A DNA stretch of 64,000 nucleotides, from assembly GCF_030013205.1 (NCBI RefSeq), contig NZ_CP122648.1, one strand, 5' to 3'. Under the pieces are notes generated by a model. It was not told the origin of the DNA and did no database searches. It worked only from the letters and a program-made list of their open reading frames with translations. A program made the position numbers and the translations under genes. The DNA comes from Escherichia coli. GTDB lineage: Bacteria > Pseudomonadota > Gammaproteobacteria > Enterobacterales > Enterobacteriaceae. This document shows positions 9,999 to 13,882 of this stretch, piece by piece (the stretch's first letter is position 1; every line of letters starts with the position of its first letter).

Positions 9999-10836
9999 TT
10001 ATTGCGGGTAAGGCACCCAGTCGCCGCCGTTCAGGCGAACGTACGGTTTATCCTGGTATTGAATAACTACTGCATTTGAGTTCTCGGAGACCGGTGCTGT
10101 TTGTGGTAACCCACTGGTGAGTTTTTTCCAGTCAACATTGTCTTCGGAGAAAATCTTGCCATCAAGAACGCGAACCACCAGATCGGAGATAGCCAGGAAG
10201 CTGCTCGGTTGGTCGATGACAATCGGTGCCCCCTGATGTGGTGCCTTCATGCCGAAGAATTTCACCCCAACGGGGACGTCTGTGATAGACGGGCTAGGGA
10301 TATCACGTAGGCCAGATACCTGCATTCTGTCGCCCTTCAGCGCGCCACCGTGTTCCGGCACCACTACCACCATCACTTTACGACCCGACTTCTCCAGTTC
10401 AGTAAAGAAGGCGTCCAGCTCATCAAAGAATTTCTGTGCTCGCGCTTTGTAATCCGCTGTTTTGCTGACGCCCGGATAATGGTTGCCGTCATGCAGTGGA
10501 AGCGTGTTGTAGAACGTGGCACTACGGCTGTTTTTATCTTTTTCGGTAACGTCCAGCCAGCGGTTAAGCACGGCGGTATCGTCATAAACCGGCGAACCAT
10601 CAAAGCCCAGCAAAATAACCGGCAGATTTGTTTGATCCATCAATTCGGTCTGCATGCCGCCATTTTCGCGAACTTCTTTCAAAAAACCGCCGAACTGGCC
10701 GTTATGTCCCATCATCAGGTGCTGGGTAAAGCCCAGTTTCGACAGGTTATCAAACAGATAGCAGTCATTATTTGCCGGTTGATACAGATTAGTATGCGAA
10801 GTCTGCCCGCAGCTGGCGCGCAGTAAACGGATCGCC
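9999..10836 (-). pseudogene. bcsG: bcsG remnant: only about the C-terminal 278 codons of the cellulose phosphoethanolamine transferase remain
   Basis: The frame ends ..RLNGGDWVPYPQ* as in BcsG (YhjU). Homology continues upstream of the first Met (..IRLLRASCGQTSHTNLYQPANNDCYLFDNLSKLGFTQHLMMGH..) to about 10836. There it abuts bcsC sequence. The N-terminal TM domain is absent. Confidence 0.85.
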
Positions 10837-10837
10837 G

Positions 10838-13800
10838 CCGGAAGGTGACATTGCCGTCGAGTACTGGAGTACGGTGGCGAAAATTCCGGCTCGCCGTGGC
10901 GAAGCGATTAATCAGCTAAAACGCATTAATGCGGATACGCCGGGCAATACGGGCCTACAAAACAATCTGGCGCTATTGCTGTTTAGTAGCGATCGCCGTG
11001 ACGAAGGTTTTGCCGTCCTGGAACAGATGGCGAAATCAAACGCCGGGCGCGAAGGGGCCTCTAAAATCTGGTACGGGCAGATTAAAGACATGCCCGTCAG
11101 CGATGCCAGTGTGTCGGCGCTGAAAAAATATCTCTCGATCTTTAGTGATGGCGATAGCGTAGCTGCGGCGCAATCGCAACTGGCAGAACAGCAAAAACAG
11201 CTGGCCGACCCTGCTTTCCGCGCTCGTGCGCAAGGTTTAGCGGCGGTGGACTCTGGTATGGCGGGTAAAGCCATTCCCGAACTACAACAGGCAGTGCGGG
11301 CGAACCCGAAAGACAGTGAGGCTCTGGGGGCGCTGGGCCAGGCGTATTCTCAGAAAGGCGATCGCGCCAATGCGGTGGCGAATCTGGAAAAAGCCCTCGC
11401 CCTGGATCCGCACAGCAGCAACAACGACAAATGGAACAGTCTCCTGAAAGTAAACCGCTACTGGCTGGCGATCCAGCAGGGCGATGCTGCGCTGAAAGCC
11501 AATAATCCTGACCGGGCAGAACGCCTGTTCCAGCAGGCGCGTAATGTCGATAACACCGACAGCTATGCAGTGCTGGGGCTGGGCGATGTGGCGATGGCGC
11601 GAAAAGATTATCCCGCCGCCGAACGTTATTATCAGCAGACCTTGCGTATGGACAGCGGCAACACTAACGCCGTGCGCGGGCTGGCGAATATATACCGCCA
11701 GCAATCGCCAGAAAAAGCTGAAGCGTTTATCGCCTCGCTCTCTGCCAGTCAGCGGCGAAGCATTGATGATATCGAACGCAGCCTGCAAAACGACCGTCTG
11801 GCACAGCAGGCAGAGGCACTGGAAAACCAGGGCAAATGGGCGCAGGCGGCAGCACTTCAGCGGCAACGACTGGCGCTGGACCCCGGCAGCGTATGGATTA
11901 CTTACCGACTTTCGCAGGATCTCTGGCAGGCCGGACAACGCAGCCAGGCCGATACGTTAATGCGTAATCTGGCGCAGCAGAAGCCGAACGACCCGGAGCA
12001 GGTTTACGCTTACGGGCTGTATCTCTCTGGTCATGACCAGGACAGAGCGGCGCTGGCGCATATCAACAGCCTGCCGCGCGCGCAGTGGAGCAGCAATATT
12101 CAGGAGCTGGTTAATCGACTGCAAAGCGATCAGGTACTGGAAACCGCTAATCGCCTGCGAGAAAGCGGCAAAGAAGCTGAAGCGGAAGCGATGCTGCGCC
12201 AGCAACCACCTTCCACGCGCATAGACCTCACGCTGGCTGACTGGGCGCAACAACGACGTGATTACACCGCCGCTCGCGCTGCATATAAGAATGTCCTGAC
12301 GCGGGAGCCAACTAACGCCGATGCCATTCTTGGTCTGACGGAAGTGGATATTGCTGCCGGTGACAAAGCGGCGGCACGTAGCCAGCTGGCGAAGCTGCCT
12401 GCCACCAATAACGCCTCGCTGAACACTCAGCGGCGCGTGGCGCTGGCACAGGCGCAGCTTGGCGATACCGCAGCGGCGCAGCAGACATTTAATCAGTTGA
12501 TCCCGCTGGCAAAATCTCAGCCGCCGTCGATGGAAAGTGCGATGGTGCTGCGCGACGGTGCGAAGTTTGAAGCGCAGGCGGGCGATCCAAAGCAGGCGCT
12601 GGAAACCTACAAAGACGCTATGGTCGCATCCGGTGTGACCACGACGCGTCCGCAGGATAACGACACCTTTACCCGGCTGACCCGTAACGACGAGAAAGAT
12701 GACTGGCTGAAACGCGGCGTGCGCAGCGATGCAGCGGACCTCTATCGCCAGCAGGATCTTAACGTCACCCTTGAGCACGATTATTGGGGATCGAGCGGCA
12801 CCGGTGGTTACTCCGATCTGAAAGCGCACACTACCATGTTGCAGGTGGATGCGCCGTATTCTGACGGGCGGATGTTCTTTCGCAGTGATTTCGTCAATAT
12901 GAACGTCGGCAGTTTCTCCACTAATGCCGATGGCAAATGGGATGACAACTGGGGCACCTGTACATTACAAGACTGTAGCGGCAACCGCAGCCAGTCGGAT
13001 TCCGGTGCCAGCGTGGCGGTCGGCTGGCGAAATGACGTCTGGAGCTGGGATATCGGCACCACGCCGATGGGCTTCAATGTGGTGGATGTGGTCGGCGGCA
13101 TCAGTTACAGCGATGATATCGGGCCGCTGGGTTACACCGTTAACGCCCATCGTCGGCCCATCTCCAGTTCTTTGCTGGCCTTTGGCGGGCAAAAAGACTC
13201 CCCGAGCAATACCGGGAAAAAATGGGGCGGCGTGCGTGCCGACGGCGTGGGGCTAAGCCTGAGCTACGATAAAGGTGAAGCAAACGGCGTCTGGGCATCG
13301 CTTAGCGGTGATCAGTTAACCGGTAAAAATGTCGAAGATAACTGGCGCGTGCGCTGGATGACGGGCTATTACTATAAGGTCATTAACCAGAACAATCGCC
13401 GCGTCACCATCGGCCTGAACAACATGATCTGGCATTACGACAAAGACCTGAGTGGCTACTCACTCGGTCAGGGCGGTTACTACAGCCCGCAGGAATACCT
13501 GTCGTTTGCCATACCGGTGATGTGGCGGGAGCGCACGGAAAACTGGTCGTGGGAGCTGGGGGCGTCTGGCTCGTGGTCGCATTCACGCACCAAAACCATG
13601 CCGCGTTATCCGCTGATGAATCTGATCCCGACCGACTGGCAGGAAGAAGCTGCGCGGCAATCCAACGATGGCGGCAGCAGTCAGGGCTTCGGCTATACGG
13701 CGCGGGCATTACTTGAACGACGTGTTACTTCCAACTGGTTTGTCGGCACGGCAATTGATATCCAGCAGGCGAAAGATTACGCACCCAGCCATTTCCTGCT

Positions 13801-13882
13801 CTACGTACGTTATTCCGCCGCCGGATGGCAGGGGGACATGGATTTACCGCCGCAGCCGCTGATACCTTACGCCGACTGGTAA
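10838..13882 (+). pseudogene. bcsC: bcsC remnant: 5'-truncated cellulose synthase outer-membrane/TPR subunit lacking the signal peptide and first TPRs
   Basis: The frame reads ..PPEGDIAVEYWSTVAKIPARRGEAINQLKR.. through to ..PLIPYADW*. By my recollection this corresponds to BcsC from about residue 140 onward. No upstream bcsZ, bcsB or bcsA is present. Confidence 0.85.

Follow-up and report, generated by a model that had tools for sequence, protein, structure and literature searches.

The bcs locus for cellulose synthesis was analysed in a window of 64,000 nucleotides from the chromosome of the Escherichia coli strain ETEC4079 (pig faeces, Belgium), positions 1-49000 of which match NZ_CP122643.1 192001-241000 base for base. 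The window retains the chromosomal position of the E. coli EcType 1 (type IIa) bcs locus, and its flanks are collinear with those of the intact locus in strain CFSAN018748, where dppF-yhjV-ldr is followed by the divergent gene groups bcsGFE and bcsRQABZC and then by hmsP-dctA. Between these flanks the window holds only parts of two bcs genes: bcsG' on the minus strand (9999-10841) and 'bcsC on the plus strand (10842-13882). In the list of open reading frames (ORFs), the minus-strand frame ending at 9999 and the plus-strand frame ending at 13882 meet head to head at about 10826-10841.

Both genes have lost their 5' ends. The 280 amino acids encoded by bcsG' correspond to residues 280-559 of the 559-residue BcsG (codons 280-559 plus the stop) with zero differences from CFSAN018748, and cover positions 239-516 of the 516 in the Pfam profile CBP_BcsG (E=1e-130), which is the C-terminal 54% only. 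We take the membrane anchor to be gone, with the remnant beginning just past the reported catalytic serine. The 'bcsC frame encodes 1018 amino acids, from about residue 142 of BcsC to 1157, of which the part beyond the junction (residues from about 145 through 1157, and the stop) is identical to that of CFSAN018748. TPR families and the BCSC_C domain (E=3e-120) are present in Pfam searches, while the first approximately 141-144 residues are missing, N-terminus included and presumably with it the signal peptide. As neither remnant has acquired an amino-acid change, there has been no further decay. We found no sigma-70-like promoter match within 10300-11300 that could drive either of them, although this is a weak negative. 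The Prokaryotic Genome Annotation Pipeline (PGAP) of RefSeq already marks 9999-10841 (bcsG) and 10826-13882 (bcsC) as pseudogenes 'missing N-terminus'. An earlier note, made from the DNA sequence without database searches, had described the C-terminal half of BcsG joined without a scar, head to head, to a BcsC short of roughly 140 residues; protein alignment, the Pfam matches and the direct joining seen in the nucleotide alignment all agree with that description.

To define the extent of the loss, the window was compared with the locus of CFSAN018748 (swine, Denmark), the closest genome with an intact bcs locus; coordinates in that locus are prefixed L003 below. BLASTN returned two collinear blocks, each with 99.94% identity: window 1-10841 matched L003 308-11148 with 6 mismatches and no gaps, and window 10826-39283 matched L003 21442-49901 with 14 mismatches. 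The window lacks the segment L003 11149-21457, a total of 10,309 bp. As annotated in CFSAN018748, this segment comprises 837 bp of the bcsG 5' end, bcsF and bcsE on the left, the 271-bp divergent intergenic region, bcsR, bcsQ, bcsA, bcsB and bcsZ in the middle, and, on the right, the 5'-terminal 433 bp of bcsC (its first approximately 141 codons). Neither the bcsG nor the bcsC match continues past the junction, every gene that the earlier note had listed as missing is indeed absent, and its size estimate of about 10 kb was close to the measured value. BcsA, BcsB, BcsE, BcsZ and BcsQ gave no tblastn match in the window. Judged by its gene content, which lacks the catalytic core and the divergent promoters, what remains of the bcs locus here is a non-functional remnant.

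The junction itself is a 9-bp perfect direct repeat, CGCCGCCGG, at window 10833-10841, with no inserted nucleotides. The intact locus has one copy in bcsG (L003 11140-11148) and another in bcsC (L003 21449-21457), in the same orientation, and the window has kept a single one. In the three-way alignment the intact bcsG side reads ...GTAAACGGATCGCCGCCGG followed across the boundary by GCCACTG, the intact bcsC side reads ...TTCAACGGTGCGCCGCCGG followed by AAGGTGA, and the window reads ...GTAAACGGATCGCCGCCGGAAGGTGA, so that all junction bases come from bcsG or bcsC. The repeat lies at the end of a wider, imperfect homology at 10826-10841, AACGG(AT/TG)CGCCGCCGG, in which 14 of 16 positions agree; it is the overlap of the two BLAST blocks, and the window keeps the bcsG-side variant AT. 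Microhomology of at least 9 bp had a frequency of 7.5e-5 among 400,000 random breakpoint pairs drawn between bcsGFE and bcsRQABZC of the same locus. This fixes the position of a junction previously placed at roughly 10830-10842 and gives weight to the suggestion that the deletion was microhomology-mediated. Two parental repeat copies, one of them kept and no filler between the joined ends are the signature of illegitimate recombination at short repeats.

An artefactual or man-made origin is extremely improbable. The ETEC4079 assembly does show signs of homopolymer errors, with many 'frameshifted' plasmid coding sequences, and the window differs from the RefSeq record of the strain near 54,987, where it has T8 in place of T7 within a minus-strand ORF (54859-56082); this is probably a homopolymer sequencing or polishing difference. 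However, the same junction occurs in 17 separate complete assemblies of field isolates from several accession series, which rules out an assembly artefact. Deletion by lambda-Red/FLP engineering or next to an insertion sequence (IS) is excluded by the junction. As the earlier note had seen from the sequence, it has neither an IS end nor an FRT/lox scar or cassette; an IS would still be in place after an IS-mediated adjacent deletion, and not one base at the junction is non-native. Nor is any mobile element annotated between ldr and hmsP.

The distribution of the junction was examined among 5,426 complete E. coli genomes. Seventeen of them contain window positions 10600-11000 over their full length at 100% identity; in the rest, the two halves match separately only. 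The earlier note had asked whether the junction is lineage-specific or unique; it is lineage-specific but not unique, and all 17 genomes come from pigs or wild boar, in at least four countries. They are W13-16 and P15-25 from France, EC556 (Japan), EC571 and EC581, K_EC180 from South Korea, and eleven ETEC-numbered strains from Sus scrofa, among them ETEC4079 from Belgium. W13-16 and P15-25 are the only records among the 17 that carry a serotype label, O139:H1, and were typed as O139:H1 sequence type (ST) 1 by Perrat et al. (PMC8798679). The 58.6-kb plasmid of ETEC4079 carries F18 fimbriae, AIDA-I and alpha-hemolysin, typical of the porcine edema-disease clone; a published table gives matching virulence plasmid content for W13-16 and P15-25 (PMC8798679). 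Over 20-25 kb of flank, the 17 genomes hardly differ from the window or from one another. Among bcs-intact genomes, CFSAN018748 alone is equally close, the next relatives being 99.3% identical. The lineage thus numbers 18 complete genomes, 17 of them with the deletion, across four countries: a lesion fixed in a pathogenic lineage. CFSAN018748 represents the pre-deletion state, with both repeat copies kept; it is the one genome in which we confirmed the presence of both. An exact scan of metagenome_contigs for the 42-mer across the junction, GCGCAGTAAACGGATCGCCGCCGGAAGGTGACATTGCCGTCG, returned 0 matches, a result that is uninformative on pig-gut metagenomes.

Loss of the chromosomal genes need not mean loss of cellulose if the cluster had been relocated or replaced, as in E. 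coli 730V1. Strains with a deleted chromosomal cluster and a functional plasmid cluster are documented (PMC13609730), and PLSDB contains 135 E. coli plasmids with a gene for a BcsA homologue of approximately 55% identity. We searched with a chimeric query in which the junction region was joined to two 400-bp fragments of bcsA, one chromosomal-type and one plasmid-type. This query found a single matching place in each of the 17 junction chromosomes and three in intact genomes, so the 17 chromosomes hold neither a relocated bcsA nor a second bcsA-like place. The four ETEC4079 plasmids (77,176, 216,724, 36,528 and 58,596 bp; 389,024 bp in total) have no bcs gene in their full annotation and gave no tblastn match to BcsA, B, E, Z or Q or to plasmid-type BcsA and BcsB, while positive controls worked. 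The published inventory of W13-16 and P15-25 lists no 'bcs' for their chromosomes or plasmids (PMC8798679). These results bear out the view that the core genes were lost and not moved, and leave a relocated or acquired cluster as the source of cellulose in this clone highly improbable. An earlier argument from genome counts (29 genomes without a match to the deleted segment, 10 without a match to the flank) was suggestive only and was superseded by the chimeric query.

Some plasmid records are worth describing in their own right. pPK8217-139kb (NZ_CP080123.1; 2160-18383 of the extracted locus, L008) bears an alternative cellulose cluster with EAL and GGDEF genes upstream of bcsA-bcsB, whose products share approximately 55% (BcsA) and 61% (BcsB) identity with their chromosomal counterparts; a 3,474-bp bcsC, the length of the chromosomal gene, is preceded by an IS3 element and a gene for a group II intron reverse transcriptase (ltrA). 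Plasmid records among the E. coli genomes also have matches to short pieces of the chromosomal bcs genes, with 90-95% nucleotide identity, such as 229 bp of bcsZ at 91.7%. The largest ETEC4079 plasmid, unnamed2 (NZ_CP122645.1, 216,724 bp), is a large IncHI-type multidrug-resistance plasmid with tet(B), TEM-1, sul3, cmlA1, floR, msr(E)/mph(E) and lnu(G), and also carries a Shedu nuclease gene and a tricarballylate (tcu) module.

Taken together, we consider it very probable that the arrangement goes back to one spontaneous, microhomology-mediated deletion of 10,309 bp between CGCCGCCGG copies in an ancestor of the porcine edema-disease clone. Illegitimate recombination between the copy in bcsG and that in the 5' part of bcsC would have removed, in one step, both divergent bcs promoters, the whole catalytic core (bcsR/Q/A/B/Z/E/F) and the N-terminal half of bcsG, leaving two promoterless, N-terminally truncated pseudogenes head to head. 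The global clone that includes the O139:H1 isolates would then have inherited it, and a single ancestral event is the parsimonious reading of its presence in 17 genomes. Since the catalytic core and promoters are gone, the strain is predicted to be unable to make phosphoethanolamine-cellulose, the phenotype that the earlier note had also anticipated. As for the route, replication slippage or template switching may have been involved, or microhomology end-joining after a double-strand break. Deletions between short direct repeats in E. coli arise by RecA-independent slipped misalignment or by RecBCD/LigA-dependent alternative end-joining, and 9 bp is expected to be too short for efficient RecA-dependent recombination. 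The window resembles such deletions in its two parental repeats, one of them kept, and in its lack of filler, but the 10.3-kb spacing is long for slippage. No Chi sites lie next to the breakpoints, which offers no clue to the pathway.

Several points weigh against this account. Nine base pairs at a spacing of 10 kb are a poor substrate for simple slippage, which makes the exact pathway uncertain. The intact locus contains four direct copies of CGCCGCCGG (L003 11140, 17835, 21449 and 24432), and copies 1 and 2 have an exact match of 11 bases, longer than that of copies 1 and 3, which the deletion joined; repeat length alone thus does not explain the choice of partner, and the deletion looks like a rare stochastic event rather than the product of a deterministic hotspot. 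A highly divergent chromosomal cellulose synthase would escape megablast, though its presence in ETEC4079 is unlikely, and published phenotype data for the clone were not found in the literature. Finally, the single origin rests on the near-identity of the flanks and not on a whole-genome phylogeny. The deletion itself excepted, the 12.5 kb of flank compared contains no single-nucleotide polymorphism (SNP) that unites the deletion genomes to the exclusion of CFSAN018748; the differences seen in CFSAN018748, with ETEC1746 as the outgroup, are private SNPs and too few to root the event. This last point would also fit repeated formation of the same junction in separate strains, as microhomology-mediated deletions can recur at the same repeats. 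Against such recurrence, the junction is confined to 17 of the 5,426 genomes, whose flanks are near-identical over 20-25 kb; bcs deletions elsewhere in the collection have different breakpoints; and, outside the clone, the junction never appears in the genomes that retain at least 80% of the deleted segment. We therefore regard recurrence as very improbable and retain the single ancestral deletion.

Across the collection, the bcs locus is near-core: in 5,262 of the 5,426 genomes (97%), at least 80% of the deleted segment is present at a single place, and 29 genomes have no match to it at all. Independent head-to-head deletions running from bcsG into bcsB, bcsZ or bcsC were found in ETEC1746, STEC409, LR-21-1, ES5 and 730V1. 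That of ETEC1746 (NZ_CP122727.1; 5158-10894 of its extracted locus, L006) spans 8,456 bp, with 6 bp of exact microhomology (TGGCGG) at its junction, and is accompanied by an internal stop in bcsC. ETEC1746 and STEC409 resemble the window in that the deletion is scarless and head to head, starts in bcsG, removes both promoters and bcsA, and has microhomology at its junction; they differ in keeping bcsZ and a full-length bcsC (with the internal stop), and in their unrelated background (approximately 97.5% identity). In 730V1 (O19:H7), nearly the whole chromosomal EcType 1 cluster is likewise lost, with bcsG and bcsC remnants adjacent (PMC13609730, 2026), a deletion that our chimeric-query search (H207) recovered as an independent allele. 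Its breakpoints and its bovine lineage are different, however, and the strain compensates through an EcType 4 cluster on a plasmid, which produces cellulose; the ETEC4079 plasmids carry no alternative cluster.

Inactivation of bcs genes is also known by other routes. E. coli K-12 has a stop codon in bcsQ. Like S. Typhimurium ST313 and Shigella/enteroinvasive E. coli (EIEC), it parallels the window as a case of bcs loss of function fixed in a specialized pathogen or laboratory lineage; these losses are mostly point mutations or single-gene pseudogenizations, whereas in the porcine clone one event took out many genes wholly or partly. In ST313, a bcsG stop codon goes with loss of cellulose and of the red, dry and rough (rdar) morphotype (PMC4810497, PMC6611641). 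Literature searches on bcs or cellulose in O139 and edema disease, on rdar in porcine F18 strains, and on ETEC4079 and CFSAN018748 found no paper discussing the deletion. The sole trace of bcs loss in the porcine clone is a virulence inventory table that lists 'bcs' for the chromosome of an O141:H4 ST10 pig strain and not for O139:H1 ST1, without comment (PMC8798679).

The neighbours of the remnant are undisturbed. To the left of bcsG', three tandem ldr type I toxin repeat units (8629-9996, plus strand; ORFs and annotation) are untouched by the deletion and give self-similar BLAST blocks of approximately 95-96% identity with a period of approximately 483 bp. Their copy number varies in the clone, with a single ldrD in W13-16 and three units in ETEC4079; CFSAN018748 also has three. 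To the right of 'bcsC lies hmsP (13964-15952, plus strand, 662 amino acids), the pdeK of the earlier note, and further on pdeH, for a cyclic di-GMP phosphodiesterase (20394-21161, plus strand). Both had been called intact, and both are annotated by PGAP as coding sequences without a pseudogene flag. Elsewhere in the window, a tRNA-Pro gene is followed by two RtT small RNA repeat units that are approximately 96-97% alike (337-749). The chu/shu haem-uptake cluster (44351-53304, from a haem ABC ATPase gene to chuS) is placed between yhiD and dctR, within the gad/hde acid-fitness island. An ArsP_1-family permease (Pfam E=2e-52) divergent from an ArsR/SmtB regulator (56663-58067) adjoins the arsRBC operon (58190-60325). 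At the T7/T8 difference near 54,987, an annotated hypothetical protein of 371 amino acids becomes a 407-residue ORF with no Pfam match.

Whether the loss was adaptive is a separate question. If cellulose acts against virulence or adhesion, selection could have favoured the deletion in the toxigenic pig clone and convergent losses in other pig enterotoxigenic E. coli (ETEC). Consistent with this, 17 of the 18 complete lineage genomes are deleted, an independent bcsG-to-bcsB deletion with an internal bcsC stop occurs in the unrelated Belgian pig strain ETEC1746, with the same arrangement in STEC409, and reduced or lost cellulose has been linked to invasive or virulent Shigella, EIEC and S. Typhimurium ST313 (PMC13609730, PMC4810497, PMC6611641). 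On the other hand, hitch-hiking of a single event with clonal expansion would give the same distribution, and 97% of complete E. coli genomes, many pathogens included, keep the locus. Of the independent alleles, one further is from pig ETEC (ETEC1746), and the others are from a human, a bullfrog and cattle, so not from pigs only. Fitness, virulence or infection data on bcs loss in the clone were not found in the literature. Selection for the loss is accordingly a tentative and rather doubtful explanation. By the same token, we would put forward only as a speculative possibility that the deletion was a pathoadaptive step, favoured by selection, as the worldwide F18+/Stx2e porcine edema-disease clone (O139:H1 ST1 included) emerged, and part of a convergent loss of cellulose in porcine toxigenic E. 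coli; if so, CFSAN018748 would stand for the state of the clone before that step.

That bcs or cellulose is lost in virulent or host-adapted lineages and that bcs deletions occur in E. coli was known already, and the remnants are flagged by RefSeq. The deletion described here is a newly documented lineage marker that arose by an ordinary kind of event, and it involves no new mechanism or system. It offers a simple and exact means of recognizing the main branch of the edema-disease clone of pigs and wild boar, by the 42 nt at the junction or by a short PCR product that spans bcsG' and 'bcsC. The predicted lack of phosphoethanolamine-cellulose bears on biofilm formation and the rdar morphotype, on adhesion, and on environmental persistence on farms and in wild-boar habitats. 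Together, CFSAN018748 and the deletion strains form a natural near-isogenic pair for asking whether the loss of cellulose helps a toxigenic gut pathogen.

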